A stretch of 64,000 nt of DNA, from assembly GCA_964515905.1 (NCBI GenBank), contig CAZEWK010000089.1:13719-77718 (forward strand). The letters are read 5' to 3'. The position numbers and the translations under genes are program-made. Source of the DNA: an uncultured Rhodospirillaceae bacterium. GTDB lineage: Bacteria; Pseudomonadota; Alphaproteobacteria; UBA7887. A model generated the notes under the pieces. That model did no database searches. It worked only from the letters and a program-made list of their open reading frames with translations, and had not been told where the DNA came from. Of the stretch, positions 14,698 through 54,635 are shown one piece after another; the first letter of the stretch is position 1, and every line of letters starts with the position of its first letter.

Positions 14698-14701
14698 CTA
14701 A

Positions 14702-15175: not shown

Positions 15176-15708
15176 TGATTCAACTTTTCAATCAGTGGAA
15201 GCAGGTATTTATCCAAGTCCCTTTGCGTGATCGGACCAATATGTTTGTATCGTATGCGCCCCGACTGATCGATCACAAATGTTTCTGGAACACCATACAC
15301 TCCTAGCTCTATACCCACTCTCCCATCCCGATCTGCACCTATACGACCAAACGGATCACCTAATTCATCCAACCAAGCCCGCGCATCCTTAGACTCATCC
15401 TTATAGTTAATGCCATGCAGTGCAACTACTCCGTCGCCCGCCATCTTCATCAGTAATGGGTGCTCAACTCGACACGGTAAACACCATGATGCGAATACAT
15501 TAATCAGTGACACTTCCCCTCCTAAATCTGAGGATGCCAACCCAATAGTCTGATCATCTAAAGCGGGCAAATCAAAAATTGGAACATTTTTATCCGTTAA
15601 CGCGGTTGGCACTGCTGATGGATCTAATGACAGACCCCTCAGCAAAAAAATACATAAGACACCAAAAATAATAACTGGCAGAAGAAAATACAGCCGACTC
15701 TTATTCAT
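15172..15708 (-). CDS. ccmG: thiol:disulfide interchange protein CcmG/DsbE
   Basis: Thioredoxin-fold WCLPC active site. Start taken at MNKSRLYFLLP; the longer ORF to 15780 overlaps ccmF. Confidence 0.85.
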   Translation of the reverse strand: MNKSRLYFLLPVIIFGVLCIFLLRGLSLDPSAVPTALTDKNVPIFDLPALDDQTIGLASSDLGGEVSLINVFASWCLPCRVEHPLLMKMAGDGVVALHGINYKDESKDARAWLDELGDPFGRIGADRDGRVGIELGVYGVPETFVIDQSGRIRYKHIGPITQRDLDKYLLPLIEKLNQ

Positions 15709-33576: not shown

Positions 33577-34806
<1,230 letters not shown>

Positions 34807-34808
34807 AA

Positions 34809-36875
34809 ATGGATAAAGATACACCTATTCAGGTTAACTATTCGGCATGTCCTCATGACTGCCCCAGCACATGTGCTCTTGAAGTAGAGTTGTTAGACCA
34901 ACATCGGATAGGTCGGGTCCGTGGAGCTAAAGAAAATTCTTATACTTCGGGCATCGTCTGCGCAAAAGTGGCGCGCTACTCTGAACGCACGCATCATCCG
35001 GATCGTTTGATTTCCCCGATGCGTCGAAGCGGTGAAAAGGGAACCGGTGAATTTAAATCTATTTCTTGGGATGACGCCCTAGATGAAGTGGCCGAAGCGT
35101 TCATCCAAACGGCTCAAAAACATGGCTCCGAATCTATATGGCCTTATTTTTATGCTGGAACCATGGGTCTGCTGCAACGTGATGGCATCAATCGACTGCG
35201 CCACGACATGAAATATTCTGGGCAACACAGTACCATTTGCGTAACACTTGTCCAAGCCGGATGGAAAGCAGCCGTAGGGACCCTGCGTGGACCAGACCCA
35301 CGAGAAATGGCGGCCTCCGACTTAATTATTGCCTGGGGTGGAAACCCTGCTTCTACTCAAGTCAACGTAATGACCCATATACAAAAAGCACGGAAAGAGC
35401 GTGGAGCAAAATTTATCGTGGTCGATCCATACCGAACACGCTCTGCTCAAGTATCCGACATGCACCTCGCTTTGAAGCCAGGTACGGATGCAGCAATGGC
35501 CTGTGCGGTAATGCATGTACTTTTTCGGGATGGATTTGCCAACCACAAATATATGTCACAATTTTCGGATTGTCCCGAAGCCCTTGAACATCACTTGCGC
35601 ACACGCACACCCGCATGGGCGGCAAAAATCACTGGTCTGTCAGTCTCAGAGATAGAGACTTTTGCGAAATTGTACGGTCAAACAAAGCGTAGCTACATCC
35701 GAGTGGGATTTGGCTTCTCTCGCTCTCGAAACGGCGCGGTGAATACCCATGCTGTATCCTGCTTGCCAACCATTACTGGAGCTTGGGCTCATAAAGGCGG
35801 TGGAGCATTTCACAGTAATGGTGGCATCTATCATTGGGATAAAACTTTGATAGAAGGTCTTGACTGCCAGGACCCTTCGATTCGCCTGCTGGATCAATGC
35901 AGGATCGGACCAATTTTAACCGGTGATAAAATGGATCTAGCCAACGGGCCAGCAGTGCACGCCATGTTGGTACAAAATACTAACCCGGCAGTGGTGGCTC
36001 CAGAATCAGCCAAAGTGATAGAGGGCCTGCTCCGGGACGATTTATTCTTGTGTGTCCATGAGCAATTTGTAACAGATACTGCTAAATTTGCCGATATTCT
36101 GCTGCCCGCCACCACTTTCGTGGAACATAACGACATATATCAAGCAAGCGGACACCAACATATTACTCTTGGCCCGAAACTTATCGAACCTATTGGTCAA
36201 TCCCGCTCCAATCACAATGTAATCTGCGCAATTGCAAAGCGGGTGGGTGCCACTCATAGGGGTTTCAAAATGACGGAGTGGGAAATTATTGACGAGACGT
36301 TAAAGACCTCTGGTTGGGGTAGCGTTGACGCCTTAAAAGATAACCGTTGGATTGACTGTCAACCGAGTTTTAAGGATTCTCACTTTTTAGATGGATTTGG
36401 GTTCGATGACGGCAAGTTTCGGTTTGCTGCTAACTGGGCCGCTGAAGGGCCCGACCATAAGGCTCTACCGAATCTCCCAGACCACATAGAATTAATCGAA
36501 AAGGCTGATGCAGATCATCCATTCCGACTAGTAACTGCTCCAGCACATAATTACCTAAACACATCGTTTACAGAGACAAAAACTTCTATAGCAAAAGAAG
36601 TGAGACCGACTATTAAACTGTGTAAGGAGGATATCGCGCAATTAAATATGCTCCCTGGGGACAAAGTAAAAGTTGGGAACAGTCGAGGTGAAATTATTGT
36701 GCACGTTGACATTGCCAAAGATCAACAATCAAAAGTCGCAGTAATTGAAGGTATTTGGCCTAATCATGCATTCGAAAACGGGCTCGGTGTAAACACGTTG
36801 ATCGGGGCTGACCCCGGGCCACCGAATGGCGGCGGTGTTTTTCATGATGCTGCAGTTTGGATTAAAAATGCCTGA
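34809..36875 (+). CDS. molybdopterin-dependent oxidoreductase (MopB/COG0243 family) with N-terminal Cys cluster
   Basis: About 688 aa starting MDKDTPIQVNYSACPHDCPSTC (Fe-S motif). Bis-MGD oxidoreductase domains follow. Start abuts the upstream stop with a 2-nt gap. Confidence 0.8.
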   Translation: MDKDTPIQVNYSACPHDCPSTCALEVELLDQHRIGRVRGAKENSYTSGIVCAKVARYSERTHHPDRLISPMRRSGEKGTGEFKSISWDDALDEVAEAFIQTAQKHGSESIWPYFYAGTMGLLQRDGINRLRHDMKYSGQHSTICVTLVQAGWKAAVGTLRGPDPREMAASDLIIAWGGNPASTQVNVMTHIQKARKERGAKFIVVDPYRTRSAQVSDMHLALKPGTDAAMACAVMHVLFRDGFANHKYMSQFSDCPEALEHHLRTRTPAWAAKITGLSVSEIETFAKLYGQTKRSYIRVGFGFSRSRNGAVNTHAVSCLPTITGAWAHKGGGAFHSNGGIYHWDKTLIEGLDCQDPSIRLLDQCRIGPILTGDKMDLANGPAVHAMLVQNTNPAVVAPESAKVIEGLLRDDLFLCVHEQFVTDTAKFADILLPATTFVEHNDIYQASGHQHITLGPKLIEPIGQSRSNHNVICAIAKRVGATHRGFKMTEWEIIDETLKTSGWGSVDALKDNRWIDCQPSFKDSHFLDGFGFDDGKFRFAANWAAEGPDHKALPNLPDHIELIEKADADHPFRLVTAPAHNYLNTSFTETKTSIAKEVRPTIKLCKEDIAQLNMLPGDKVKVGNSRGEIIVHVDIAKDQQSKVAVIEGIWPNHAFENGLGVNTLIGADPGPPNGGGVFHDAAVWIKNA

Positions 36876-36956
36876 ATTCAGCAGCCCCTTCACACGACAA
36901 CGAATAAAAACCAATAAACTATATACCTCACAAAGTCGGACGTAACCAAAACACCT

Positions 36957-37937
36957 ATGTTTATCAAAAACCATCGTAATTGGTATATTCCAGACTCAAA
37001 AGTGACACCAGAAAAGGTATTTTGGAACCGCCGTGAATTCTCCAAAACCGTCATTGCGGGCAGTATTTTAGGTGGGTCAACCAGCAATATTTTTAGTGTT
37101 TTATCACCATCTGAAGCTTTGGCTGAACCGGATTTAAACGCTGACCGTTATCCTGCCCGCATCAACCCTCGATATACAGTGAGACGACCAATTACGCCAG
37201 AGCATCTCGCAACTACTTATAACAATTTCTTTGAATTTGGATCCAGCAAAGACATATGGAAAAGCGCTAAGCAGCTTCCTCTAAGACCTTGGGAGATACG
37301 TCTTGATGGAATGGTTGAGAAACCAATGACATTTGGCGTGGACGACTTGATCAAAAAAATGCCACTTGAAGAGCGCGTGCTCCGGCATCGCTGTGTAGAA
37401 GCCTGGTCAATGACAGTACCTTGGACAGGGTTCCCACTTCGACTTTTACTTGATATTGCCAAACCTTTAAGCCAAGCCAAATACTTGGAAATGTCTGCTT
37501 TTGAATTGCCAGATATTGCTCAAGGACAACGACAAATATGGTTGCCTTGGCCCTACGGGGAGGGCATTACAATAGAAGAGGCTAGCAACGAATTGGCCAT
37601 GCTGGTGGTAGGGGCTTACGGGGCACCACTGCCCCACCAAAATGGAGCCCCACTGCGACTAATTTTGCCATGGAAATATGGCTTTAAATCAATCAAATCC
37701 ATTCAACGCTTTACTTTCACAGACCGCCGTCCAGTAAGTTTCTGGCAAGAGATCGCTGGAAACGAGTATGGCTTTTGGGCCAATGTAAATCCTGAAGTTC
37801 CACACCCGAGATGGAGCCAAGAAACGGAGCGAATGTTGGGGTCGAATGAACGGGTACCAACACGCATTTTTAATGGATATGGGGAGTTTGTGTCGCACCT
37901 ATACACAGACCTTAGAAACGAAAATCTCTTTTTATAA
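36957..37937 (+). CDS. msrP: protein-methionine-sulfoxide reductase catalytic subunit MsrP (YedY)
   Basis: 326 aa. ...CVEAWSMTVPWTGFPL...NGAPLRLILPWKYGFKSIKSI aligns to the MsrP sulfite-oxidase-fold Moco domain. Confidence 0.85.
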   Translation: MFIKNHRNWYIPDSKVTPEKVFWNRREFSKTVIAGSILGGSTSNIFSVLSPSEALAEPDLNADRYPARINPRYTVRRPITPEHLATTYNNFFEFGSSKDIWKSAKQLPLRPWEIRLDGMVEKPMTFGVDDLIKKMPLEERVLRHRCVEAWSMTVPWTGFPLRLLLDIAKPLSQAKYLEMSAFELPDIAQGQRQIWLPWPYGEGITIEEASNELAMLVVGAYGAPLPHQNGAPLRLILPWKYGFKSIKSIQRFTFTDRRPVSFWQEIAGNEYGFWANVNPEVPHPRWSQETERMLGSNERVPTRIFNGYGEFVSHLYTDLRNENLFL

Positions 37938-39628: not shown

Positions 39629-40522
39629 TTATTTAAAACCCGTCTCCGCGACTTTCCGTAATAAGAAATCGCGAAAAACCGAAATGCGACGCGAATCTTT
39701 TAGTTCTGACGGATAAACGAAATATGCCTCCGCTGACGGTGTCTCGAGTTTGTCTAAAATACGGACTAAATTTGGTTGTTGGTTTGAAAGGAAGGTTGGC
39801 AATGTTGCAATACCAGTTCCATTCTGAACGCAACGCAACATGCCGTAAACATTGTTTACTGTTAACGACGGCTCAAACTTGGGCGCTATCAAATTGAGCT
39901 CGTCGAGCAGCCAACTGTGCCCCGCAAACGGTGAAGGCATTTCGGAACCAAAACTTATGACTCTGTGCTTGGTTAACTCTCGTATTTTCGTAGGTGTCCC
40001 AAACTGATTCAAATAGGCCGGTGCGGCATATATACCTAAATGTCCTGTGAACAAACGCCGCTGTATCAAGTCCGACTGTGTTGGGGGTTTTACTCGTATT
40101 GCAACGTCTGCCTCTCGCATGGTCAAGTCAAGCTCTACATCTGCTACTAGTAAGCTTACCGATATATCGGAATACAGGTCTATAAATTCTCCTATATGTT
40201 CGGTAAGCCATAATGAGCCAAATCCCACAGTCGTCGTAATCCGTAGTGGTCCTTTTGGATGCTCTTGACTTTCAGTTAGCCTTGCTTCAGTCATCGCGAG
40301 TGTCGTGAAAACATCGTGAACGGACTGAAACAAGACCTCTCCTTGTTCCGTTAACAGCAGACCTCTTGCGTGACGATGAAACAAAGTTAAATTCAACGAG
40401 TCTTCAAGACCCCGGATCTGGCGACTTACCGCAGATTGACTCAAATTTAGCACGTCCCCCGCATGAGTGAAACTACCGGTTTCAGCGACTACATGGAAGA
40501 TTCTTAGCTTATCCCAGTTCAT
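39629..40522 (-). CDS. LysR-family transcriptional regulator
   Basis: 297 aa. N-terminal HTH FTHAGDVLNLSQSAVSRQIRGLE and a LysR substrate-binding domain. Confidence 0.9.
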   Translation of the reverse strand: MNWDKLRIFHVVAETGSFTHAGDVLNLSQSAVSRQIRGLEDSLNLTLFHRHARGLLLTEQGEVLFQSVHDVFTTLAMTEARLTESQEHPKGPLRITTTVGFGSLWLTEHIGEFIDLYSDISVSLLVADVELDLTMREADVAIRVKPPTQSDLIQRRLFTGHLGIYAAPAYLNQFGTPTKIRELTKHRVISFGSEMPSPFAGHSWLLDELNLIAPKFEPSLTVNNVYGMLRCVQNGTGIATLPTFLSNQQPNLVRILDKLETPSAEAYFVYPSELKDSRRISVFRDFLLRKVAETGFK

Positions 40523-40583
40523 CTATTTGATTTCAGAAATGATTTTGCAACTCACCTCTTGTCCTAGCCTTTGCAATTAATAG

Positions 40584-41549
40584 TCACTCCGCGGCGCGCA
40601 TCGCGTTATCATCAGTTGCTAGATATCGTTCCGCTTCAAGAGCCGCCATGCAGCCAGAGCCCGCTGCGGTTACGGCCTGCCGGTACACCTTATCTTGGAC
40701 ATCACCAGCCGCGAACACACCAGGAATATTTGTTGCCGTACTTCCCGGTATAGTGTTGATATAACCATCCTTATCCATATCCACCATACCTTTAAATAAA
40801 CCGGTATTCGGTGTATGGCCAATAGCAATAAACAAGCCGTCCAATGGCAGTTCTCTTTGCGCACCAGTTTTAATATTTTTAAGACGAAGACACTCTACAG
40901 ATTTTGGATCACTGCTCCCTAACACCTCTTCGACCAGATGATCCCACAGTATTTCTATTTTTTTGTTAGAGAATAGTCTGTCCTGCAGCATCTTTTCTGC
41001 TCGCAACTCATCACGGCGGTGAACAAGCCACACTTTTGAAGCAAAATTAGTCAGAAAAAGCGCCTCCTCAACAGCCGTGTTACCTCCTCCAACTACTGCA
41101 ACCACTTTATTTCGGAAAAAGAACCCATCACAAGTAGCACACGCTGAGACACCAAATCCTTGGTATTCTGTCTCACTGTCCAACCCCAGCCATCGAGCTT
41201 CCGCGCCAGTACATAATATTACCGATTCCCCAGTATAACGCGCACCAGAATCTCCTAGACACACAAAGGGGCCCTGGCCTAAATCTATTTCTTTGATTAT
41301 GTCTGAAACCATTTTTGTACCAACTGACTCTGCTTGCTTCTGCATCTGCTCCATGAGCCAAGGACCCTGAATAACATCAGCAAAACCGGGGTAATTTTCG
41401 ACGTCGGTGGTGATTGTCATTTGTCCGCCAGGTTGAATACCGTGCAACAAGATCGGGGCTAAATTCGCTCTTGAAGCATATATAGCCGCTGTTAGACCGG
41501 CAGGCCCGGAACCCAAGATTAGTACCTTGCTGTGGTTTAAAGTCGTCAT
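40584..41549 (-). CDS. trxB: thioredoxin-disulfide reductase
   Basis: 321 aa. GSGPAG FAD site, CATCDGFFF redox-active disulfide, GGGNTAVEEA NADPH site. Confidence 0.95.
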   Translation of the reverse strand: MTTLNHSKVLILGSGPAGLTAAIYASRANLAPILLHGIQPGGQMTITTDVENYPGFADVIQGPWLMEQMQKQAESVGTKMVSDIIKEIDLGQGPFVCLGDSGARYTGESVILCTGAEARWLGLDSETEYQGFGVSACATCDGFFFRNKVVAVVGGGNTAVEEALFLTNFASKVWLVHRRDELRAEKMLQDRLFSNKKIEILWDHLVEEVLGSSDPKSVECLRLKNIKTGAQRELPLDGLFIAIGHTPNTGLFKGMVDMDKDGYINTIPGSTATNIPGVFAAGDVQDKVYRQAVTAAGSGCMAALEAERYLATDDNAMRAAE

Positions 41550-41831
41550 ACACCCACCAAAAAATCTGTAATTTAGAAATCGAAACTACTGTTGGATATG
41601 CAAAGTAGATCAGAAAATAAACAATATTTACATTCTAAATAAAATGAATAGCCTGCTATTTAATCGTACTTTACGCGACCTCTCCACAAACTTCCAAATG
41701 TTTTACTCTACCGTTGAACGATTAGGTAAGATTACAGGCGTATTTCTGTATTAATCAACGTTAAGTATCTGTCCCCTACGCGATCTCTCCTTAAAGCTTG
41801 ACCATTACTACTTGCCCGTGAAAATAAGGAT

Positions 41832-42563
41832 ATGTTTTCTAATAATTCTATCACCCGCAAATGCTTCTATTTGGCTATTCTGCTACTAACGTGTGTGGCT
41901 TGGGATCAACTGTATGTTTGTGCTGGGGTCGCCGAAGAGACAGAATCTGGCGGACAAGAATGGAACCATATCAAAACTGTGCTGATGTCGGCCGAATATG
42001 GAGGAAGATCCGGAGTTGTTGAACGCTGGAACCGTTCCCCGCTGATCACTGCCGTAGGCGCCTCAAAAACAGACCAGGCATATATTGAATCTCTCATTAT
42101 GAACTGGAATCAAATTCTAGCAGAAACACCCATTCAGCTAAAATATACGAATGATGCGCGCGCTGATATTGGTATAATCTTCGCGGATCGAGCAAATTTT
42201 AAAGAAATTTCTGCCATTTATGGCTTCCAGATTGTTGAAGGAGGCGTCGGCTTTGCGGGAACAATCGTTGACAACCAGCATCACATGAGAATGGGGCTAG
42301 TACTGATAGATAACAAATTACTCGATCACGAGCGTAAGGCAACGATCGCTCAGGAGCTCTATCATACTCTTGGACCAATAAACGACTCGCCGTATTTTCC
42401 AGCTAGTGTCGTATTTGAAGACGAGACCATGCCCTCCTCAGCAATTAAACTTGCGGATGTCGATAGAAAGCTCTTAAAATTTTTATACGCCTATTTAAAG
42501 CCCGGTGACCTACAATCGGACACGCGAGAAGCTTTTATAAAATTTTGGGATACTCTAGAATAG
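41832..42563 (+). CDS. secreted hypothetical protein (possibly DUF2927-like)
   Basis: 243 aa with N-terminal signal-like hydrophobic segment. No catalytic motif recognised. First gene of a three-gene plus-strand cluster. Confidence 0.45.
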   Translation: MFSNNSITRKCFYLAILLLTCVAWDQLYVCAGVAEETESGGQEWNHIKTVLMSAEYGGRSGVVERWNRSPLITAVGASKTDQAYIESLIMNWNQILAETPIQLKYTNDARADIGIIFADRANFKEISAIYGFQIVEGGVGFAGTIVDNQHHMRMGLVLIDNKLLDHERKATIAQELYHTLGPINDSPYFPASVVFEDETMPSSAIKLADVDRKLLKFLYAYLKPGDLQSDTREAFIKFWDTLE

Positions 42564-42601
42564 AAAGTCTATTTGTAGGCCTGTCTGGCAAAGATTTATA
42601 G

Positions 42602-43432
42602 ATGACTAATCAAATGCGGAATAATGATAGCCAACCCGATTTGACAGGCTATTGGGGACATTTAACCACTACGGACTTTTCTACCTTAAACCCCGAGGAA
42701 ACCATTGCCCTACTCCCAGTAGCAGCCATCGAACAGCATGGGCCGCATCTACCACTTGAGACGGATGCATGCATAAGTGAAGGCTTGGTCAAAGGCCTTT
42801 TGGGCAGAAGCCATGATCGTCTAACACTCGTTAGCCTGCCGCCGATGGTTATCGGCGATAGCACAGAGCACATTGATTATTCAGGAACACTCTCAGCTAA
42901 CACCGAGACACTAGTCAGTCTGTGGTCAGGTATCGGCAAGCAAGTGGCCAAATCTGGCATTCAAAAACTACTAATCCTGAATACTCATGGAGGGCAACCG
43001 CAAATCGTGGACATAGTAGCACAGCGTCTTCGTGCCCAGGATAAAATGCTGGTAGTTGGGGTGAGCACCTTTAAGCTTGGCATTCCTGAAGGCCTATTTA
43101 ATACTAAAGAACTTCAGCATGGGCTACATGGGGGTGAAATAGAAACATCACTCATGCTCTTCCTTAAGCCAGAATTAGTGCGCCCAAACCGGGCAAACAA
43201 TTTTATTTCATCATCTTGGAAAATGGAAGAAACATACTCCCGCCTTTCGACAAACGGACCGGCTGCATTTGCTTGGCAAGCACAAGACTTGCACGAATTG
43301 GGAGTGGTGGGCGATGCAGCAAAAGCCGACGCCAAGCGTGGGTCCAAATTGTTTGAATTCTTGTTGGATGAAATATCTCTTATTTTGAGGGATATGAGAC
43401 AGTTCCCCATATCTGATTTGAAGAATGTCTAG
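42602..43432 (+). CDS. creatininase-family amidohydrolase
   Basis: 276 aa. ...AIEQHGPHLPLETDACISEGL... and ...LNTHGGQ...GGEIETS match the creatininase/ArfB/MftE family metal-binding motifs. Confidence 0.75.
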   Translation: MTNQMRNNDSQPDLTGYWGHLTTTDFSTLNPEETIALLPVAAIEQHGPHLPLETDACISEGLVKGLLGRSHDRLTLVSLPPMVIGDSTEHIDYSGTLSANTETLVSLWSGIGKQVAKSGIQKLLILNTHGGQPQIVDIVAQRLRAQDKMLVVGVSTFKLGIPEGLFNTKELQHGLHGGEIETSLMLFLKPELVRPNRANNFISSSWKMEETYSRLSTNGPAAFAWQAQDLHELGVVGDAAKADAKRGSKLFEFLLDEISLILRDMRQFPISDLKNV

Positions 43433-44246
43433 TCAGACTTTGATTGACGTTGAGGGTGCTTGGACGCTCCTGCTGCAATATCTAAACGGAACATCTCAAA
43501 ACATTTTGGACATCGACGAAACGGGCTCATGGAATATTATACGAGGCCTCTCAGACGCAGCCGAAGATTTAATCCGGTTATACGGACCCTTAGTTGCAAA
43601 ACAGAGAAACCGATCGCTGATTGTCGCGAATCTGGGACAGAGTCTGGACGGATATATCTCTACCAACAACGGTAACTCATATTACGTCACTGGCAAGGAA
43701 AGCATTATTCATCTTCATCGAATGCGCGCCTTATTTGATGCAGTTATAGTAGGAGCAAATACAGTTGATGCAGACAATCCAAAACTGACAACACGACTAG
43801 TGAGCGGCAATAACCCAACCCGCGTCGTTATAGACCCAAACCGTAAATTAAGTCCTTCCCACCAAGTGTTTACTGATGAATCAGTTGCTACTGTTTTGTT
43901 GTGCGCCCAAAACCTAAAGCAAAGAAATTATCCTGCTTTGAAGAACGTTGAAATTCTTGAACTGCCCAACACCGACGAAGGTATCTCTACTAAGGATTGC
44001 ATTGATGCATTGGGCTCACGAGGGCTACATCGTTTGTTCATAGAGGGTGGTGGCATCACCGTGAGCCGTTTTTTTAATGCGGGTGTCCTTGATCGGCTTC
44101 ATATCACCGTTGCCCCCGTAATGTTTGGCGCAGGCAAGGTCGGAATCCAACCCACGGCTGCAATAAATCCTGGTAAGGCCTTTCGTGGAAAGCACTGCAG
44201 AACTTTTCCACTCGGGGACGATATTTTGTTTGATTTCGAATTTTAG
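43425..44246 (+). CDS. RibD C-terminal-domain (pyrimidine reductase/DHFR-like) family protein
   Basis: 273 aa. ...IVANLGQSLDGYIST... and ...LFIEGGGITVSRFF... match RibD_C reductase motifs. Has a ~60 aa N-terminal extension. Overlaps the creatininase gene by 8 nt. Confidence 0.7.
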   Translation: MSSQTLIDVEGAWTLLLQYLNGTSQNILDIDETGSWNIIRGLSDAAEDLIRLYGPLVAKQRNRSLIVANLGQSLDGYISTNNGNSYYVTGKESIIHLHRMRALFDAVIVGANTVDADNPKLTTRLVSGNNPTRVVIDPNRKLSPSHQVFTDESVATVLLCAQNLKQRNYPALKNVEILELPNTDEGISTKDCIDALGSRGLHRLFIEGGGITVSRFFNAGVLDRLHITVAPVMFGAGKVGIQPTAAINPGKAFRGKHCRTFPLGDDILFDFEF

Positions 44247-44274
44247 GAAGTAAGCCCAATCCTGATATTATCAC

Positions 44275-45129
44275 CTACCAAGAAATGGGCCACGCCCACA
44301 AATCTGTATGCCCAACATCCAATTGAGAATGGCATTGCTCAATTGCTGTGAGTCGAAATTTCAACCAGTCGCGAGTTTCCTGACTTTTGTCCACCAGACC
44401 CATCCAATCTTTGATAAGTGCTGTTTGAAGATCCAAATCGGCTTTTCCCAATGCCCAAGCACTTGGGGCAGTTATAACGTCGTATCCTGCGTGGCGAAGT
44501 GCACACTCTAATACAGAGACAGCACGTGACCCAAGCCCCTCTCCAAAGCCTTTATCTCGACGTTGATCATAATTTAAGGCGTCTAGGACCAGTGAGTCTG
44601 TGGGGTGAGCTGGGCCAAAAGTTACACAGCCGTTGTAGTTCAGGCACGCGTATACACATGCTTGAGTCTCAGAACACCAATCTACAAACTTCATACACCA
44701 ACTAGCGGAGACCAGGTCTAAAAAAGCGGAAACAGTTACTAAATCAATCTCTGAAGGTCTGTCCCCAAAGCCTCTTGATAAATCACAATCATGGAAAGTT
44801 AACTCATAATCTTTGTCATCACCGTATATCTCTAGGCGATCTGGGGCTATCTTTGTCTGCAAGCCATTTTGTTGGCCCCACTTACAAAGGTTAGTTTTTG
44901 CTGCCGCAAGCAATGAGTCTGAGTGATCCATGAGTCTCCATGACTGCCCTAATCCCAAATAAGGGGCCAATGCCCGGATACAACTTCCAGTGCCAGAGGC
45001 TATGTCAATGGCCGAAATATGATCGAAGTGTTGTGACCAACAGTGCAGAACCGCTAATAGGTCTTTGTTGCGTGCACGAGAATCTGCTGGTTCACGTAAA
45101 TTTAACCAGTCAACCGTAAACCCACTCAT
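44275..45129 (-). CDS. class I SAM-dependent methyltransferase
   Basis: 284 aa, DIASGTGS motif I-like glycine-rich segment. Last gene of a four-gene minus-strand operon, overlapping the glycosyltransferase stop. Confidence 0.55.
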   Translation of the reverse strand: MSGFTVDWLNLREPADSRARNKDLLAVLHCWSQHFDHISAIDIASGTGSCIRALAPYLGLGQSWRLMDHSDSLLAAAKTNLCKWGQQNGLQTKIAPDRLEIYGDDKDYELTFHDCDLSRGFGDRPSEIDLVTVSAFLDLVSASWCMKFVDWCSETQACVYACLNYNGCVTFGPAHPTDSLVLDALNYDQRRDKGFGEGLGSRAVSVLECALRHAGYDVITAPSAWALGKADLDLQTALIKDWMGLVDKSQETRDWLKFRLTAIEQCHSQLDVGHTDLWAWPISW

Positions 45130-46271
45130 TAACCAACCGTCTCAAGAAGGAATGCCTCCATTTGGTAAACCACCTTTTCCCATGATCTTTGAGTCCTTCT
45201 GCAACCCCTTGCTCCCTCTGTCAAGCGGCAGCGCAACCGAGGTTCGTGAAAAAATCGACTTAATGCTGAAGCGAAGGCCCTACTATCACCGGCGGGAACC
45301 AACAAACCTGCCTTCTGAGGGACAGTCTCAATTATTGCTCCGGCGCTAGTCGCTACGATTGGTATTCCTGACCCCAAAGCCTCAGCCAAAGCCATCCCAT
45401 ATCCTTCATGGTATGACGCAAGCACGAACAAATCGGCGGACCGAAGCGCATCTCTCATTTTTGATACATTCAAGTTTCCTAGAAAATTAATTCTATCGCG
45501 AATGCCGAGTTTCGTAGCACAATTTTTCACTCGAATACTTGTTTGCTTATCCCTATCTAGATCACCTATACAATCTAGGTTCCAAGGAACCTCCTGAAGA
45601 GAGGCTAATGCATGCAGCAATACTTCATGCCCTTTCCGCGGTATTAATGTGGCGATACACAAAAGATTGAATGAAGCCTTATTAGATCCTATAGAGACAG
45701 GCATTTTCGCTATCCCCGGCTCGATAACCTCAATAGAAGCTGGATTCACATAGTACTCTTCTATTAACATCTTGGCAGTTACTGCGCTGGTTACCGAGAT
45801 CTGGGAACACACGGAAAGAGCCACCTGTTCTAACTTTTTAAACTGCAGTTGCTGAGCCAACGTTAGTCCAGTTTCCTCCGCCACAGGGTGATGAACTAAG
45901 GCGACTATCCTCAATCGTTTTGAAGCCTTACAAAGCTGACTTGCTAGTGGTGCCAACGCAAGCCCATCAATAACGACTAGACTATGATCTGGAATTTTTT
46001 TAATTATTGAATAAGCGTATTCCAGGTCATGGTCCGACGGGAATGGAAATCTTGCTGATAGGGAATGAAGACTCACATGCCACTTCTGGGCAGACAATCC
46101 GTTAATGATATGCTTGTCATAGATATACCCGCCTGTGAGAGCATCGATATTACCTGGTATAATGAAGTGTATCTGCCGCAAATTGTCTGCTCCTACACAA
46201 AACGAAGATGCATGCCTGTACCGAGAAGGTCCAACCGCTTGTACATACGCCCATCCGTCGGCCAACCTCAA
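45129..46271 (-). CDS. glycosyltransferase family 4 (GT-B, group 1)
   Basis: 380 aa. [20 protein letters not shown] is the GT4 E-x7-E donor-binding motif. Confidence 0.8.
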
Positions 46272-46675
46272 CCATTAAGTAAGGCACCTTCGTAGCGCGC
46301 CCATGCCACGTGTGATTCATGCAGTGTCACCGAAATCGCTGTCAGGCCTGAGGCATCCGCCCCCAAGTCTCCTTCACTAACCTTTTTAAATAATCTAGAA
46401 AATATCACTTCAGCTAGAACTTCGGTGGTAGTGTTCCGATCAGCAAGCGACGGGTCTTCATCCAAGTTTCGATAATTTAACTCTTCAAGGACCTCCGCTA
46501 AAGCGGCGGAAGCTAATCCAATATCTATCACCAAGCCGTTATTATCCAAAGTCGGTCGACGAAATTCAACGTCAACCACATATGTAGCGCCATGCAGGCG
46601 CTGCGCGGGCCCAAACACGGCCCCTTTAAAACTATGTGCAATCATAACATGATCGCGGACCGATACGGTGTACAT
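46268..46675 (-). CDS. 6-pyruvoyl-tetrahydropterin synthase/QueD-like protein with degenerate active site
   Basis: 135 aa. Aligns to E. coli QueD (AAHRL / IAHSF; CGRLHGHSF / AQRLHGATY; TSEVLAKWIW / [10 protein letters not shown]). The catalytic Cys and one zinc-ligand His are replaced by Ala. Confidence 0.7.
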
Positions 46676-46687
46676 CAGCCTTCTCCT

Positions 46688-47698
46688 CTAAACGTGATCA
46701 TCATACTGAGCAACGACCCCCGAATACGTCACACAATGACAAAGCTCTTGGTTGGTTGGCAGAGTAATTCGACGCATTGTTTCTGGTAGTTGTTCAAACT
46801 CACTATGGCCAGAAATCAGTTGATCCAGTATGTCGTCAGCAAGAAGATCAAGCGCCAAAGATAAACGTCGGCGATAATCCCAACGGGATCTCTGGGTAAT
46901 CCCGACCTGCCCAACTTGTGAAGATTGCAACCTAAGTCGCTTGGAGTGAAACCCTTCGCCCAAGGGTAACTTCACAGTTTGTTTTCCGAACCAACTCAAC
47001 TCTAGAATTGTCGCCTCTTTTCCCGCCAATTCAAGTGCCAGATGCAATCCCTCCTGCGACCCAGAAGCGTGAATCACCATGTCACCTGATCCTGAGGCAT
47101 TTTTGGCTTCAGAGAACTTAACGCCCAAAGCACTGGTAACATTTTTCTTACATGGATCGATATCGACCATCAGCACCCGGGTTCCTGGAATCTGGTTAAC
47201 GAGGTACGCTGCCAGGCACCCAATGACGCCAGCGCCAACGACTATCACATCTGAACCAATTGCCACCGGGGAGTCCCAGAGACCATTAATAGCAGTCTCC
47301 ATGTTGGCCGCCAAAATTGCACGACCCTTGGGGACATTTGCTGGGATCGGCACCACGGATTCCTCTGGCACAACGTAAAAATCCTGGTGTGGGAAAAGGC
47401 AAAAAACAGCCCGATTTAACAAACTAGCCGGGCCCTTCAATACAAGCCCGACATTCGAGTATCCATATTTCACTGGTCCTGGGAAGTTTCCCTCCTGAAA
47501 CGGAGCACGCATAATCTGATGCTGGCTGGCTGGAACGTTACCCTTATAGACCAGACTTTCGGTTCCCCGGCTAATACCACTAAACAGTGTTTGAACCAAA
47601 ACCTCCCCTTCCCGAGGCTCCACCAATGGTGTTCGGAGTATCTGACCGTTTCCAGGTGCTTGCACCCAAAACGCGTGGGCATAAAGGGCCGTGGTCAT
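46688..47698 (-). CDS. medium-chain dehydrogenase/reductase, BchC-like subfamily lacking canonical zinc ligands
   Basis: 336 aa. FSGISRGTE and YGYSNVG sit where Zn-ADHs have CxxC and GHE. GAGVIGCLAAY Rossmann motif. Confidence 0.65.
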   Translation of the reverse strand: MTTALYAHAFWVQAPGNGQILRTPLVEPREGEVLVQTLFSGISRGTESLVYKGNVPASQHQIMRAPFQEGNFPGPVKYGYSNVGLVLKGPASLLNRAVFCLFPHQDFYVVPEESVVPIPANVPKGRAILAANMETAINGLWDSPVAIGSDVIVVGAGVIGCLAAYLVNQIPGTRVLMVDIDPCKKNVTSALGVKFSEAKNASGSGDMVIHASGSQEGLHLALELAGKEATILELSWFGKQTVKLPLGEGFHSKRLRLQSSQVGQVGITQRSRWDYRRRLSLALDLLADDILDQLISGHSEFEQLPETMRRITLPTNQELCHCVTYSGVVAQYDDHV

Positions 47699-47846
47699 AT
47701 TTTGATGCTCCCTAAACGGGTTCTAAATCGAACAGAAAAGTATATGATTGCATAAACTACAACATCTTGCATTGCAGGAGTTACACTCTCCATTCTCTTT
47801 GCCTAGAGCCTAAAATGAGAAACCCCCTGGTAGTTCTACACGTGAA

Positions 47847-48611
47847 ATGCAGAAAACACGATCTTCCTTAACTAAATTTACTACTAGCACCATTTGTCAT
47901 TTGATCGCTGCTGCTGCAACGACTGTGCTTACCACAAAGCTATTAACGTTAGGGAAAAGTACTCAAATTTTTGCCCCCCTGCAGGTGCTAACTGTGTTTA
48001 TCCTGATAGTAGGTACAACACTCCTACAAGCAAGAAAACACCCGCTGCCAGACTCCTTTGGGATCGCCAATCGGGTTACATTATTCCGGCTCAGCTTAAC
48101 GGCCGTCCTCGCAAGTCAGATTGGCATCGCCGCAACCCTTCGCCCTAGTGAACTTTGGTTTTTCGTTTCACTGGCTGTAATCGCACTTTTATTTGATGCT
48201 GTCGATGGGTGGCTAGCCCGCCGCTTCCATATTCAAAGCACGTTCGGAGCAATATTTGATCTAGAAGTTGATGCTTCTTTCATACTTGTCTTAGCAATAA
48301 TAGTATTCGAACTTGGAAAAGTTGGGCCCTGGGTTCTTTTAGTGGGAGCCATGCGTTACCTGTTTGTGGTGGCAGGGTGGAAGATTCGTAAACTCCGGAG
48401 ACCATTACCTCCAAGCCGAAGGAGGCAAGTTATTTGCGTAGTACAAGCTATTAGTTTGATAATAATTTTGTGCCCTATTACTAGCGCCGCGCTAGCTACC
48501 ACAATTATACTCTTCTCCCTTCTGCTCTTACTTGTCTCATTTTATCAAGATATTTATTACCTCCTATCCACCGAACGAACCATGGAGGCGTGTTGTGGAA
48601 ACACCTCGTAG
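47847..48611 (+). CDS. CDP-alcohol phosphatidyltransferase family protein
   Basis: 254 aa. DAVDGWLARRFHIQSTFGAIFDLEVD is the D-x2-DG-x2-AR-x8-G-x3-D-x3-D motif. Multi-TM. A second family member beside pgsA, so substrate is unknown. Confidence 0.75.
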   Translation: MQKTRSSLTKFTTSTICHLIAAAATTVLTTKLLTLGKSTQIFAPLQVLTVFILIVGTTLLQARKHPLPDSFGIANRVTLFRLSLTAVLASQIGIAATLRPSELWFFVSLAVIALLFDAVDGWLARRFHIQSTFGAIFDLEVDASFILVLAIIVFELGKVGPWVLLVGAMRYLFVVAGWKIRKLRRPLPPSRRRQVICVVQAISLIIILCPITSAALATTIILFSLLLLLVSFYQDIYYLLSTERTMEACCGNTS

Positions 48612-49206
48612 GATTTATGTTGCCACCGTATTTTTAATAACCATTGCAACAACTTTTATCTTAACGATTACTAGTCTTAAAGCAGAACCCTTAGATTATG
48701 TGATCGACCCAGAGCATTTTAGTGTGGGCTTTTTAGTTGACCATATCGGCTATGCGAAAATCCTGGGGATGTTTTTGAAAGCGGAGGGGCGTTTTACCTT
48801 TGACGAGCAAGAACAGTCCATCACAAATCTGTACGTTCAAATTGATACCATGAGTGTATTTACCAATCACAAAAAAAGAGATAGCCATTTACGAGGTCCG
48901 GATTTTTTAAATGCACGTGAGTTTCCGGTGATGACATTTAAGGGAGACTTAATTGAACAAACAGGCGCTAAAACTGGAAAGATTATCGGTCCTCTATCTT
49001 TGATAGGGCAATCGTTTCCTTTAACTTTGGATTTTACCTGGAACAAAAACGAGATCTATCCGTTTGGACACCGTAAACCTACCATAGGTATTTCTGCACG
49101 AGGCACCTTCCGCCGAAGCGCTTACGGCATGAGCTATGCGGTAGGAAATGGATGGGTAGGCGACAATATTGACATAATCATTGAATTCGAGGCCTACCAG
49201 AAGTGA
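48532..49206 (+). CDS. YceI-family periplasmic protein
   Basis: Signal-like N-terminus plus YceI domain (DPEHFSVGF...TFDEQE...). Start uncertain: ATG at 48532 overlaps the upstream gene by 80 nt, and an in-frame GTG near 48594 is an alternative. Confidence 0.7.
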   Translation: MSHFIKIFITSYPPNEPWRRVVETPRRIYVATVFLITIATTFILTITSLKAEPLDYVIDPEHFSVGFLVDHIGYAKILGMFLKAEGRFTFDEQEQSITNLYVQIDTMSVFTNHKKRDSHLRGPDFLNAREFPVMTFKGDLIEQTGAKTGKIIGPLSLIGQSFPLTLDFTWNKNEIYPFGHRKPTIGISARGTFRRSAYGMSYAVGNGWVGDNIDIIIEFEAYQK

Positions 49207-49226
49207 CGGGTCTGACCTACTAGCAA

Positions 49227-50846
49227 ATGGTCAACTGGAAGAGATTTGCTGGGATTTGTGCCGCTTTAATAATCCTTAATGCGTCGCTGAGCTTCCACAA
49301 TATTTGGCCAACACCCTGGATCTACTTGAGGCCTGAATTATCTGTTGAAGCAGCAATGGTAATACTTCTGATATGTACGTATACCAGTGCGTTTAAAAAA
49401 TCTATGGGACAACGAATGCGACTTTGTTTGTTGATATTCGTTCTTATCCTTGTTCTTGGACGTTACCTCGACGTCACAACGCCTTCCCTCTTTGGAAGAC
49501 CTCTTGATCTCTATTGGGACGCCCAACACGTACCTCGCATTGTCGCGATGATTTGTGACGGCAGAACCACCGCATTTATTTTTGGAATAGGGGCACTGCT
49601 ATTGGCAGGTGCTGCTTGTATTGCTTACACCGCGTCATGCTCACTGCGCTTTCTTTGCCTATCCACAGAAACTAAAAGAGTCCGCATTGCATTGTCGTGC
49701 CTATCCCTTTTTATATTAGGACTTTACGCTGCAGGAATGGGCAATCGGAGCATTCAAACCGAACGATGGTTTTCTATTCCAGTAGGTTACATGTACATTG
49801 AACAGCTCAACACAATCTACGAGTCTTTGTACGACCATACCCCAGTTGAAATTGCCGCCCCTGCCCACATTAATTCGGACCTAGGTCGGCTACATGGTCG
49901 AGACATGTATCTGTTTTTCGTAGAATCGTACGGCTCGATAGTATTCGATGATGGTGAATTCATTCCACGCTTAAAACCAGCCATAAAAACTCTGGACGAA
50001 AATATGGAAATATATGGATGGGTGGCCGCGACCGGGCTTTATGAAAGCCCGACTTTTGGCGGGGCTTCTTGGTTGGCACACGCAACTTTGATGACAGGGA
50101 ATTGGACAAAAAGACAACAGGATTACAAAGCCCTGATGAGCAGCAAATTTCGTAGCTTAACAACATACTTCCAGGAGGCAGGATATCGCACAGTAGCACT
50201 TATGCCTGGCTTAAAAACACTATGGCCCGAGGGAACATTTTACAAATATGATCAAATTTGGAATGCCAGCCAACTCAAATATATGGGACCTGATTTTGGG
50301 TGGTGGCGGATTCCAGATCAGTACAGCCTGTCTTATTTATACGATACTGAAATAGCACTCTCAGACCGACCCCCATTATTTGTTTTCTTTGCATCTATTT
50401 CTAGTCATATGCCATTTACTCCGCTCCCCCCTTATGAAGAAGACTGGTCGCAGGTACTATCGGATTCTCCGTATGATATTGCTCATACGAACGTTGATAA
50501 TAGCTACTTGATCGAAGCAGATACTATGCGTCTCGCATACGAGCGAGCAATAAATTATGAGATCCATTTGCTAGCAGGGTTTTTAAAAAAGGTCGCGCAT
50601 CAAAAGCCTATGATAATAGTGCTCGGCGACCACCAACCTCCAGCAATAGTATCTGGGAGGAATACACCATGGCTGGTTCCAGTTCATGTGTTTACCCAGA
50701 ATACTGACCTTTTAGAACCCTTTATTGACATCGGATTTCGGCGTGGGCTTCTACCACCGAGCAACCCATTGGGACGTTTGAGTTTTTTACATAAAATAAT
50801 CCTGGAAGGCTTCGACACAAGGTGGCAAGCCAAAACAAATGATTAG
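49227..50846 (+). CDS. membrane-anchored alkaline-phosphatase-superfamily transferase (LtaS/EptA/OpgB-like sulfatase domain)
   Basis: 539 aa. About 5 N-terminal TM helices, then a soluble domain with LFFVESYGS and C-terminal IIVLGDHQPP motifs, as in phosphoglycerol/phosphoethanolamine transferases. Confidence 0.55.
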   Translation: MVNWKRFAGICAALIILNASLSFHNIWPTPWIYLRPELSVEAAMVILLICTYTSAFKKSMGQRMRLCLLIFVLILVLGRYLDVTTPSLFGRPLDLYWDAQHVPRIVAMICDGRTTAFIFGIGALLLAGAACIAYTASCSLRFLCLSTETKRVRIALSCLSLFILGLYAAGMGNRSIQTERWFSIPVGYMYIEQLNTIYESLYDHTPVEIAAPAHINSDLGRLHGRDMYLFFVESYGSIVFDDGEFIPRLKPAIKTLDENMEIYGWVAATGLYESPTFGGASWLAHATLMTGNWTKRQQDYKALMSSKFRSLTTYFQEAGYRTVALMPGLKTLWPEGTFYKYDQIWNASQLKYMGPDFGWWRIPDQYSLSYLYDTEIALSDRPPLFVFFASISSHMPFTPLPPYEEDWSQVLSDSPYDIAHTNVDNSYLIEADTMRLAYERAINYEIHLLAGFLKKVAHQKPMIIVLGDHQPPAIVSGRNTPWLVPVHVFTQNTDLLEPFIDIGFRRGLLPPSNPLGRLSFLHKIILEGFDTRWQAKTND

Positions 50847-53531: not shown

Positions 53532-54635
53532 ATGAAAGTTGACGGCACTCACTATCAAACAATATGGGTCCATGATGATGGCTGGCGCGTCAACATCATC
53601 GACCAAACGAAATTACCTCATGAGTTCAACGTCACCACCCTATCCTCCTCATGTGAAGTAGCCCATGCTATTCGTACAATGATGGTGCGTGGCGCGCCAT
53701 TAATTGGTGCAGCAGCGGCGTTCGGTATTTGTCTAGCCATGCGGAAAGACCCCTCCGACGACAATTTAGAAGATGCATCCAAATTGCTTTTAGCTACAAG
53801 GCCAACAGCCATTAACCTACATCATGCTGTCCATGAGATGCGGGCGAACTTGCTATCCATTAGGGAACCAGAACGAGCAAACACCGCATACAGAATGGCA
53901 GAAAATATTTGTTCAATCGATATAAAAACGAATCGAGCAATTGGTGAACATGGCTTCCGAATCCTGAAAGGCATTTCCGAAAATAAACCAACAGGTGTTC
54001 CGGTGAATATTTTAACCCATTGCAACGCCGGGTGGCTTGCTACAGTCGACTGGGGCACGGCCACTGCGCCAATATACACTGCTCATAGTGCGGGCATTCC
54101 AATTCATATCTGGGTGGACGAGACACGACCCAGGAATCAGGGCGCTGCGCTAACCGCCTTCGAATTTTTGGAACAGGATATCCCACATACAGTTATCGTA
54201 GATAATGCCGGGGGACATTTAATGCAAAATGGACTGATTGACCTTTGCATTGTTGGAACAGACCGGACGACGGCAACTGGCGACGTAGCGAATAAAATCG
54301 GTACTTATTTGAAGGCCCTCGCAGCCAAGGACAACAATATTCCTTTCTATGTAGCACTTCCTTCTTCCACTATAGATTGGTCAATAAAGGATGGAATCAC
54401 TCAAATACCCATTGAAGAACGCCCACAAGAGGAAGTCCTATACATTAACGGACAAGATGAAACTGGCCGGCTAACCCGAATCCAGATTACTCCGGACGGC
54501 ACGAATGCAGTAAACTATGCCTTTGACGTTACTCCAGCGCATCTAATTACAGGTTTAATTACCGAAAGAGGAGTCGCGGATCCCTCCAAAGAAGGTCTAG
54601 AAAAACTTTTCCCCAAATCAGCTCGCGGAAACTGA
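53532..54635 (+). CDS. mtnA: S-methyl-5-thioribose-1-phosphate isomerase
   Basis: 367 aa, eIF-2B alpha/beta/delta-like. VRGAPLIGAAAAFG and ...CNAG...TGADR... typical of MtnA. Confidence 0.85.
   Translation: MKVDGTHYQTIWVHDDGWRVNIIDQTKLPHEFNVTTLSSSCEVAHAIRTMMVRGAPLIGAAAAFGICLAMRKDPSDDNLEDASKLLLATRPTAINLHHAVHEMRANLLSIREPERANTAYRMAENICSIDIKTNRAIGEHGFRILKGISENKPTGVPVNILTHCNAGWLATVDWGTATAPIYTAHSAGIPIHIWVDETRPRNQGAALTAFEFLEQDIPHTVIVDNAGGHLMQNGLIDLCIVGTDRTTATGDVANKIGTYLKALAAKDNNIPFYVALPSSTIDWSIKDGITQIPIEERPQEEVLYINGQDETGRLTRIQITPDGTNAVNYAFDVTPAHLITGLITERGVADPSKEGLEKLFPKSARGN

Follow-up and report, generated by a model that had tools for sequence, protein, structure and literature searches.

An overlapping creatininase-family amidohydrolase and stand-alone RibD_C reductase beside a PTPS-IV operon: a candidate formamidase and ribosyl reductase pair

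The stretch of DNA analysed here (hereafter the window) comprises 64,000 nucleotides (nt) from an uncultured Rhodospirillaceae bacterium (contig CAZEWK010000089.1, positions 13,719 to 77,718 of the forward strand) and contains two overlapping forward-strand genes that are the subject of this report. The first (42602-43432) encodes a 276-amino-acid (aa) BrbF-like, metal-dependent amidohydrolase of the creatininase family (Pfam Creatininase, E = 3e-61, residues 20-259), and the second (43425-44246) a 273-aa stand-alone protein with the pyrimidine-reductase fold (Pfam RibD_C, E = 1.6e-37, residues 66-260; score 129.7, cut-off 24.1). The reading frame of the reductase starts before that of the amidohydrolase has ended, so that the two overlap by 8 nt (43425-43432), as read from the junction letters ...AAG A[ATG TC(TAG)]T CAG. 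An earlier, sequence-only reading of the window had described both open reading frames (ORFs) and their overlap; the ORF list and the Pfam matches agree with it, as do the positions of the reductase ATG (43425-43427) and the amidohydrolase TAG (43430-43432). Same-strand bacterial genes often overlap by a few nucleotides, and 8 nt is by itself nothing unusual. The overlapping tandem is, in addition, kept in relatives down to 53% identity, with overlaps of 8 nt in L011 (a Rhodospirillaceae metagenome-assembled genome (MAG) and the closest genome in our scan), 11 nt in L082, L003 and L099, and 14 nt in L101; the whole locus, with overlaps of 8-14 nt, is retained in close relatives (53-67% identity) from hydrothermal-vent and other marine metagenomes, and the window is itself probably of marine alphaproteobacterial origin. 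Promoter and terminator scans gave background level only, and a riboswitch search of 40500-51000 returned none, whether for flavin mononucleotide (FMN) or other ligands. We propose, with slightly more confidence than doubt, that the pair would constitute a formamidase and a ribosyl reductase serving the early, nucleotide-processing part of the pathway encoded by PTPS-IV (SCO6650-type) clusters.

The stop codon of the RibD_C gene (44246) is separated by 28 nt from that of a convergent methyltransferase-like gene (44275). That the pair adjoins a PTPS-containing operon had been recognized from the sequence alone and stands, the gap having then been put at 30 bp. This convergent operon consists of four reverse-strand genes, which code for an S-adenosylmethionine (SAM)-methyltransferase-like protein ('MT12', 44275-45129; weak Pfam Methyltransf_12 match), a GT4 glycosyltransferase (45129-46271; Pfam Glycos_transf_1, E = 1e-28), a T-fold PTPS homologue of the PTPS-IV type (46268-46675; Pfam PTPS, E = 3e-26) and an MDR-type (zinc-ADH-like) dehydrogenase (46688-47698). 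The last of these gives only weak matches to threonine, sorbitol and xylitol dehydrogenases and is 52% identical to its Acidobacteriota counterparts. The nearest solved structures of the GT4 protein are MshA, BshA and PimA/B, whose acceptors are polyol-phosphates or small or lipid-linked molecules, and these relatives would fit a ribityl-phosphate acceptor. The paper on the SCO6650 structure reportedly describes a protein with no zinc and no catalytic triad that keeps residues suited to the binding of a pterin-like ring. The PTPS homologue of the window matches this Streptomyces coelicolor protein (PDB 3D7J) with E = 2e-48 and is without the third zinc-binding His and the catalytic Cys, the C-x-x-x-H-G-H motif being missing; it carries the FGPAQ motif that is the signature of PTPS-IV (AGeNNT; PMC5445326). 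The cluster type is already on record from the comparative genomics of PTPS-IV neighbourhoods in the same study, which contain both PF00925 (GTP_cyclohydro2) and PF01872 (RibD_C). The locus appears to be a further member, in which RibD_C and the core of MDR dehydrogenase, GT4 and methyltransferase genes are found, and GTP_cyclohydro2 is not found in the 64 kb.

Two features of the amidohydrolase, namely the name of its Pfam family and the fact that MftE is its top NCBIfam match by score, might point to a genuine creatinine amidohydrolase or an MftE-type peptidase, in which case the overlap with RibD_C would be functionally meaningless. We reject both identities on the curated models and the gene context, and regard this alternative as hardly credible. 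The protein scores 74.8 bits against the creatininase model TIGR04448 (cut-off 235), 111.2 bits against MftE TIGR03964 (cut-off 172) and 41 bits against IolN (cut-off 245). When it is aligned to 3A6H and 1J2T, its N-T-H-G-G-Q segment stands opposite N-G-H-Y-E-N of creatininase, so that the second metal motif G-H-Y-E (His120/Glu122) is replaced by H-G-G-Q; an S-x-E-H motif seen in the window protein is not in creatininase in the same alignments. Thus, as the sequence-only reading had supposed, the protein does not belong with the true creatininases. Moreover, there are no creatinase, sarcosine oxidase or mycofactocin genes among the scanned ORFs of the window between 30 and 64 kb, no mycofactocin genes (mftA-F, radical-SAM MftC-type) flank the pair, and the tandem is conserved across classes.

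The closest characterized relative instead comes from work on riboflavin synthesis. Yurgel et al. (2022) found that the creatininase-family proteins SMc02977 (Sm-BrbF) and Bab2_0247 deformylate 2-amino-5-formylamino-6-ribosylaminopyrimidinone 5'-phosphate, and that BrbF is required for riboflavin prototrophy in S. meliloti and Brucella (PMC9478397). The Sm-BrbF sequence that we used is a 263-aa ORF from a metagenome contig, found with the authors' cloning primers, both of which match the ends of the ORF exactly. Against the MftE, creatininase, IolN and ArfB models it scores 106, 67, 40 and 31.8 bits, a profile that closely resembles that of the window protein; with 31.8 bits, this proven formamidase likewise falls below the ArfB cut-off (NF033501, cut-off 180), where the window protein scores 21.3 bits over residues 43-141 only. 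In an alignment of nine sequences, which includes Sm-BrbF and a Streptomyces ORF considered below, residues E44, H46, D55, H129, H176 and E181 and the motif S87-x-E89-H90 are invariant. Sm-BrbF stands on a branch separate from the window protein in a neighbour-joining tree built with no bootstrap. The plasmid collection yielded only Rhizobium paralogues of about 41% identity beside LysR genes, which are uninformative.

The reductase shares with its subfamily the invariant cofactor and substrate motifs S/T-L-D-G, D-x-P-x-L-T and E-G-G-G. Among solved structures its closest matches are the archaeal 2,5-diamino-6-ribosylaminopyrimidinone-5'-phosphate reductases 6p8c (E = 1e-22) and 2azn (E = 1e-21), to which its AlphaFold model (pLDDT 85) also aligns in Foldseek with target-normalised TM-scores of 0.82 and 0.79, respectively. 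It remains below the cut-offs of the curated models, with 108.7 bits against archaeal Rib7/ArfC TIGR01508 (cut-off 186), 113.5 bits against bacterial RibD/RibG TIGR00326 (cut-off 156; profile positions 121-341 only, there being no deaminase domain) and a score that is also under the cut-off of the NCBIfam model for the RibD C-terminal domain. The sequence-only reading had noticed an N-terminal extension of about 60 aa, and indeed the RibD_C domain begins at residue 66 and is preceded by about 65 residues. AlphaFold models this extension as a confidently folded helix-strand-strand-helix unit (H9-20, E28-30, E36-38, H44-58); residues 42-65 can be aligned to the stretch between the two domains in the bacterial RibD profile, and Foldseek aligns about 30 more columns to full-length RibD than to stand-alone reductases. 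The length of the extension ranges from about 40 to 110 residues across the family, with a conserved L-L-D-L-Y-x-P-L segment at its end in every case, and the extension may have been left over from the deaminase-reductase junction of RibD.

We take the positions of B. subtilis RibG Lys151 and of M. mazei Rib7 Asp33 and Arg36, the latter two for recognition of the 2-amino group, to be those that fix specificity in this fold; structures of the D33 mutant (5XV0, 5XV2) are among the Foldseek matches. In the alignment N68, S92 and H95 of the window protein occupy these three positions. Among 84 sequences, the corresponding triad is H-N-H in 46, Q-D-R in 17, Q-S-H in 8, Q-D-H in 6, H-D-H in 3, Q-G-H in 2 and Q-N-H in one; N-S-H is found in the window protein alone, and none of the 84 has Lys at the Lys151 position. 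The triads co-vary with gene content: a creatininase gene is nearby for 15 of the 17 Q-D-R proteins, with a cyclohydrolase too in 14 of those cases, and 33 of the 46 H-N-H proteins have neither nearby. This co-variation may mark two substrate specificities within a single family. The departure of the window protein from Asp33/Arg36 could also be taken to mean that it is a dihydropterin/dihydrofolate-type reductase like M. tuberculosis Rv2671, acting on a pterin from the PTPS-IV branch rather than on a ribosylaminopyrimidine, all the more so as RibD_C and dihydrofolate reductase have their fold in common and Rv2671 structures with pteridine ligands occur among the structural matches. PTPS-IV also keeps a T-fold, which typically binds pterin-like rings, as reportedly discussed with the SCO6650 structure. 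We nevertheless consider such an activity very unlikely: the models of ribosyl reductases give 109-124 bits, far above the 45-52 bits of the Rv2671-like 'pyrimidine reductase family' models, the best matches in both sequence and structure are of the Rib7/ArfC type, and the 17 family members that do carry Asp and Arg are mostly in loci with cyclohydrolase and creatininase genes.

Scanning one genome per species with the RibD_C subfamily alignment recovered 80 loci, 54 of them at least 16 kb long; the neighbour counts below refer to genes within 10 kb of the RibD_C gene in these 54. The carriers in the scan belong to Acidobacteriota (Vicinamibacterales), Gemmatimonadota, Myxococcota and Alpha-, Beta- and Gammaproteobacteria, i.e. 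at least four phyla, to which Actinomycetota can be added, and include the cultured Halomonas/Vreelandella, Inquilinus and Ferruginivarius. A PTPS homologue of the PTPS-IV type is present in 50 of the 54 loci, GT4 and MDR dehydrogenase genes in 49 each, a methyltransferase in 45, a CDP-alcohol phosphatidyltransferase in 41, a sulfatase-like protein in 36, a GTP cyclohydrolase II homologue in 28 (being absent in 26) and a creatininase-family gene in 27, with a YceI-like protein as an occasional neighbour (10/54). In other lineages the cluster is also accompanied by LPG_synthase_TM, Exo_endo_phos and DoxX-like proteins, and de novo clustering of all ORFs in the scanned loci gave no further recurrent families. 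A creatininase-family gene thus accompanies RibD_C in half of these loci, conservation of the pair being a check that the sequence-only reading had itself named; for comparison, a rough estimate that assumes one or two creatininase-family genes per several-Mb genome puts the chance of finding one within 10 kb of RibD_C below 1%.

The creatininase and cyclohydrolase genes are associated, both being present in 21 loci, the creatininase alone in 6, the cyclohydrolase alone in 7 and neither in 20 (odds ratio about 10). In the usual layout a forward creatininase gene and a forward RibD_C gene are separated by a gap of about 1.15-1.2 kb that holds the cyclohydrolase on the reverse strand; in loci that lack the cyclohydrolase, the creatininase and RibD_C genes lie end to end or, like those of the window, overlap. 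In the Steroidobacteraceae chromosome OZ257260.1 (L053, 7582-10783) the creatininase, cyclohydrolase II and RibD_C trio occurs with no PTPS-IV, GT4 or dehydrogenase gene within 10 kb, which means that this three-gene module can be physically apart from the rest of the cluster.

These distributions also bear on the possibility that the pair is a housekeeping alternative for riboflavin synthesis, in which a BrbF-type formamidase and a stand-alone reductase replace part of RibA/RibD and the PTPS-IV operon is adjacent incidentally, without being fed by them. Pair and operon are convergent and hence separate transcripts, creatininase homologues of about 50-55% identity stand alone in other genomes, and S. 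meliloti and Brucella depend on BrbF to make riboflavin inside the cell (PMC9478397). In 50 of the 54 loci, however, which come from several phyla, PTPS-IV is found within 10 kb of the RibD_C gene, in various orientations, and a housekeeping gene would not be expected to be placed like this. Furthermore, cultured carriers such as Halomonas would be expected to have a normal ribD, no FMN riboswitch was found in 40500-51000, and neither lumazine and riboflavin synthase genes (ribH, ribE) nor ribB are among the recurrent neighbours defined by the ORF clustering. We therefore regard the riboflavin alternative as rather unlikely. The same clustering returned no Fo or F420 genes, and for this reason we have not adopted the role in F420 synthesis that a review by the de Crécy-Lagard group ascribes to PTPS-IV as an unpublished result (PMC5041015). 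This remark on unpublished work is the sole statement on PTPS-IV function that we found in accessible full text, where no published function of the cluster was found.

The proposed role of the amidohydrolase draws further on a Streptomyces locus (L103), whose PTPS is 98% identical to SCO6650 (PDB 3D7J). It contains genes for a CDP-alcohol transferase, an MDR dehydrogenase, PTPS-IV, GT4, a methyltransferase and an LPG_synthase_TM-like protein, together with a creatininase ORF and a cyclohydrolase II. The creatininase-family ORF (14119-14883 (-), 254 aa) is not called in the record; it lies on the opposite strand between the LPG_synthase_TM-like and cyclohydrolase II genes and has the complete catalytic motif set. 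The 229-aa cyclohydrolase II (14919-15608 (+)), which is immediately divergent from it, has Met at the position of Tyr105 of E. coli RibA and is, we assume, of the SCO6655 type. Spoonamore et al. (Biochemistry 2006) are said to have found that this Met lets SCO6655 release 2-amino-5-formylamino-6-ribosylaminopyrimidinone phosphate and not deformylate it. A creatininase-fold gene beside a Met-type cyclohydrolase is the arrangement that would be expected of a dedicated formamidase. We had expected the Met switch, by which a requirement for a formamidase could be understood, in the cyclohydrolases of the clusters in general, and it was seen in Streptomyces only. The Gram-negative cluster cyclohydrolases are long proteins of about 375 aa (L007 6856-7986 (-) and 37 other loci), whose N-terminal ~170 residues match no Pfam domain and align with NCBIfam NF006456; this is their most similar model, yet they score below its cut-off (324 bits, cut-off 464).

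In light of this, one may ask whether the creatininase-fold enzyme acts later in the pathway and on another amide, either in the deacetylation of N-acetylglucosamine (GlcNAc) after GT4, as MshB/BshB act after MshA/BshA, or in the opening of a lactam or acylguanidine ring in the product, be it a pyrimidine or a pterin, with RibD_C remaining a ribosyl reductase. MshA and BshA, the closest relatives of the GT4 protein, make products that are then deacetylated, and members of the creatininase family cleave a range of amide or C-C bonds (in creatinine, the MftA peptide and diketo-inositol); in addition, the Tyr105-bearing cyclohydrolases of Gram-negative clusters should not release a formyl intermediate, and half of the clusters have no creatininase gene nearby. 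The genomic associations argue otherwise: the creatininase tracks the cyclohydrolase, whereas GT4 is present in nearly all clusters with or without a creatininase; the creatininase gene is always beside the cyclohydrolase or RibD_C and never beside GT4; its Streptomyces partner is the Met-type cyclohydrolase; and its closest characterized relative, Sm-BrbF, is a formamidase. A later amide thus appears unlikely to us, although we leave it some real weight.

Several observations weigh against the formamidase and ribosyl reductase assignment itself. All 37 scorable Gram-negative cluster cyclohydrolases (37/37) retain Tyr105, the zinc cysteines and the rest of the RibA catalytic residues; as Tyr105 is the sole known switch residue, these enzymes would be expected to deformylate their own product, which would leave no need for a separate formamidase. 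The 64-kb window nowhere contains a GTP cyclohydrolase II gene, the creatininase is nearby in just 27 of the 54 clusters, and the Streptomyces cluster has no RibD_C gene within 10 kb. As for the amidohydrolase, its scores indicate that it is not an ArfB orthologue, and its identity to Sm-BrbF is only 35%. Two more distant BrbF homologues did not complement (PMC9478397). We had expected the cluster-linked creatininases to form one clade, and this was not obtained: in the neighbour-joining tree they appear polyphyletic, falling into at least three groups, and that of the window is no closer to other cluster-linked proteins than to homologues that stand alone among unrelated genes (about 50-55% identity) in Caenispirillum, a Thiotrichales MAG, P0013 and P0016. 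In the reductase, Ser and His take the places of Asp33 and Arg36 of Rib7. Nonetheless, the suggestion of the sequence-only reading that the pair would process a GTP-derived pyrimidine or pterin intermediate, and not creatinine, gains support from the cluster context, the Met-type cyclohydrolase neighbour in Streptomyces and the BrbF-like score profile.

The sequences themselves show the fold families, the conserved catalytic residues, the conserved overlap and, across phyla, the clustering with GTP cyclohydrolase II and PTPS-IV; from these data we infer both substrates, the order of the steps and all that is said here of the final product. A GTP cyclohydrolase II-type enzyme, which in the window's organism would be encoded elsewhere in the genome and in about half of the related genomes by the in-cluster gene, would first open the imidazole ring of GTP. 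The amidohydrolase (42602-43432) would then take the N5-formyl group off 2-amino-5-formylamino-6-ribosylaminopyrimidin-4(3H)-one 5'-phosphate (the ArfB/BrbF reaction), and the translationally overlapped RibD_C protein (43425-44246) would convert the ribosyl into a ribityl side chain with NAD(P)H (the Rib7/ArfC reaction). The resulting aminopyrimidine would be passed to the products of the convergent operon, i.e. the zinc-less T-fold PTPS-IV, the MDR dehydrogenase, GT4 and the methyltransferase, and might then reach the membrane enzymes of the locus, a CDP-alcohol phosphatidyltransferase and a sulfatase-like transferase.

These two membrane proteins are encoded beyond the operon on the forward strand. 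The CDP-alcohol phosphatidyltransferase-family protein (47847-48611; Pfam CDP-OH_P_transf, E = 8e-17) is followed by a YceI-like protein (48532-49206; Pfam YceI, E = 2e-33) and by a membrane-anchored protein of the sulfatase/alkaline-phosphatase superfamily with an LtaS- or OpgB-like architecture (49227-50846; Pfam Sulfatase, E = 2e-7), for which no PDB relative was found by sequence. The ORFs listed for the CDP-alcohol transferase and the YceI protein have 80 nt in common, against an overlap of 4 nt in L003 and L101; this is probably due to the YceI ORF being listed from an upstream TTG, its Pfam match starting at residue 56. The 3' end of the sulfatase-like gene is overlapped by 8 nt by a gene (50839-53484 (+)) whose 881-aa product combines a GH17-like region with a GT2 domain and looks like a periplasmic or cyclic beta-glucan synthase; a GH17/GT2 gene also follows the sulfatase-like gene in L099 (16377-end) and L101 (13346-end). 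The combination of the GH17/GT2 protein, the CDP-alcohol phosphatidyltransferase and the OpgB/LtaS-like protein suggests an envelope glucan decorated with a phospho-head group, and the co-travelling of the latter two with the cluster hints at a membrane-linked end product.

Taking these genes together, we tentatively suggest, with more doubt than confidence, that in at least five phyla the clusters encode a pathway leading from GTP to a metabolite not yet described. The pair and the cyclohydrolase II would yield a ribityl-diaminopyrimidine, which PTPS-IV and the MDR dehydrogenase would remodel and GT4 and the methyltransferase(s) decorate; the CDP-alcohol phosphatidyltransferase would join it to a phospholipid, and the sulfatase-like transferase would move it onto an envelope component, the outcome being a lipid head group or envelope decoration that derives from a nucleotide. 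In the lineage of the window this envelope component may be the glucan of the adjacent GH17/GT2 synthase.

A gene for a DUF2927 protein with a signal-like hydrophobic N-terminus (41832-42563 (+); Pfam DUF2927, E = 2.8e-13) lies 38 nt upstream of the pair and may be co-transcribed with it. It is present upstream only in L002-L004 and L011, and in one of the 54 long loci; confined as it is to the window's lineage, it was ruled out as a component of the cluster. Further upstream, a molybdopterin oxidoreductase and an Oxidored_molyb (MsrP/YedY-like) gene (34788-37937 (+)) are followed by genes for a HAD hydrolase, a class IV aminotransferase, a LysR protein and a thioredoxin reductase. This block is kept in synteny in L002, L099 and L101, a mark of common lineage and not of membership in the cluster. 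Downstream of the pair, at a distance of about 10 kb, is a gene of the IF-2B family, of the methylthioribose-1-phosphate or ribose-1,5-bisphosphate isomerase type (53532-54635 (+)). The stand-alone creatininase homologue P0013, which is 56% identical to the window protein, also overlaps an IF-2B family gene, by 4 nt (L100, 8001-8819 and 8816-9907), and this link of the creatininase clade may be a coincidence or a second context.

Three of the above observations were not found in the accessible literature, namely the association of creatininase and cyclohydrolase in the cluster, the resemblance to BrbF and the co-variation at the specificity positions of the reductase. If the assignments hold, the pair would represent the ArfB and ArfC steps in a bacterium, outside riboflavin synthesis, and would offer a concrete starting substrate for the PTPS-IV cluster, which is conserved across phyla and has one crystallized member (SCO6650). 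The formamidase link likewise bears on a question from the BrbF work, that of the source of the formylated intermediate in bacteria, and the co-travelling membrane enzymes could point to head groups or envelope decorations of a new class. Annotations of these genes as 'creatinine amidohydrolase' and 'RibD' are probably misleading.

Several known systems can be compared with the pair. It resembles the archaeal ArfA-ArfB-ArfC route to riboflavin and Fo (GTP cyclohydrolase III, the formamide hydrolase MJ0116 and a Rib7-type reductase) in its proposed chemistry and order, with deformylation by a creatininase fold followed by RibD_C-fold reduction of a ribosylaminopyrimidine that has not been deaminated. 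Unlike that route, in which the cyclohydrolase is of type III, clusters related to that of the window have type II, and the pair sits in a PTPS-IV/glycosyltransferase/methyltransferase cluster and not among riboflavin or Fo genes. With bacterial RibD/RibG the reductase shares its fold and the NADPH and substrate motifs S-L-D-G, D-x-P-x-L-T and E-G-G-G, but it has no deaminase domain, and its family has Asn, His or Gln at the position of RibG Lys151. The amidohydrolase is like P. putida creatininase (PDB 1J2T) in its fold, in the first metal motif E-x-H ... D and in the catalytic segment H-G-G-x-x-E-T-S, and unlike it in having H-G-G-Q for H-Y-E, in possessing S-x-E-H and in the lack of any creatinine-pathway gene context. 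It is more similar to BrbF, another bacterial creatininase-family protein, with which it has all invariant metal-binding and catalytic residues and S-x-E-H in common, along with a similar NCBIfam profile. Rhizobiales BrbF, however, has a MarR gene on one side and a CobW gene on the other and works in riboflavin synthesis (PMC9478397), whereas the window gene is flanked by DUF2927 and RibD_C and lies beside PTPS-IV. The SCO6648-SCO6655 region of S. coelicolor has the same core of CDP-alcohol phosphatidyltransferase, MDR dehydrogenase, PTPS-IV, GT4 and methyltransferase as the window, and a creatininase-family gene by its cyclohydrolase. This cluster has reportedly been probed in part by biochemistry; it differs from the window in its short Met-type cyclohydrolase, its LPG_synthase_TM-like gene and the absence of RibD_C nearby, the window having RibD_C and no cyclohydrolase.

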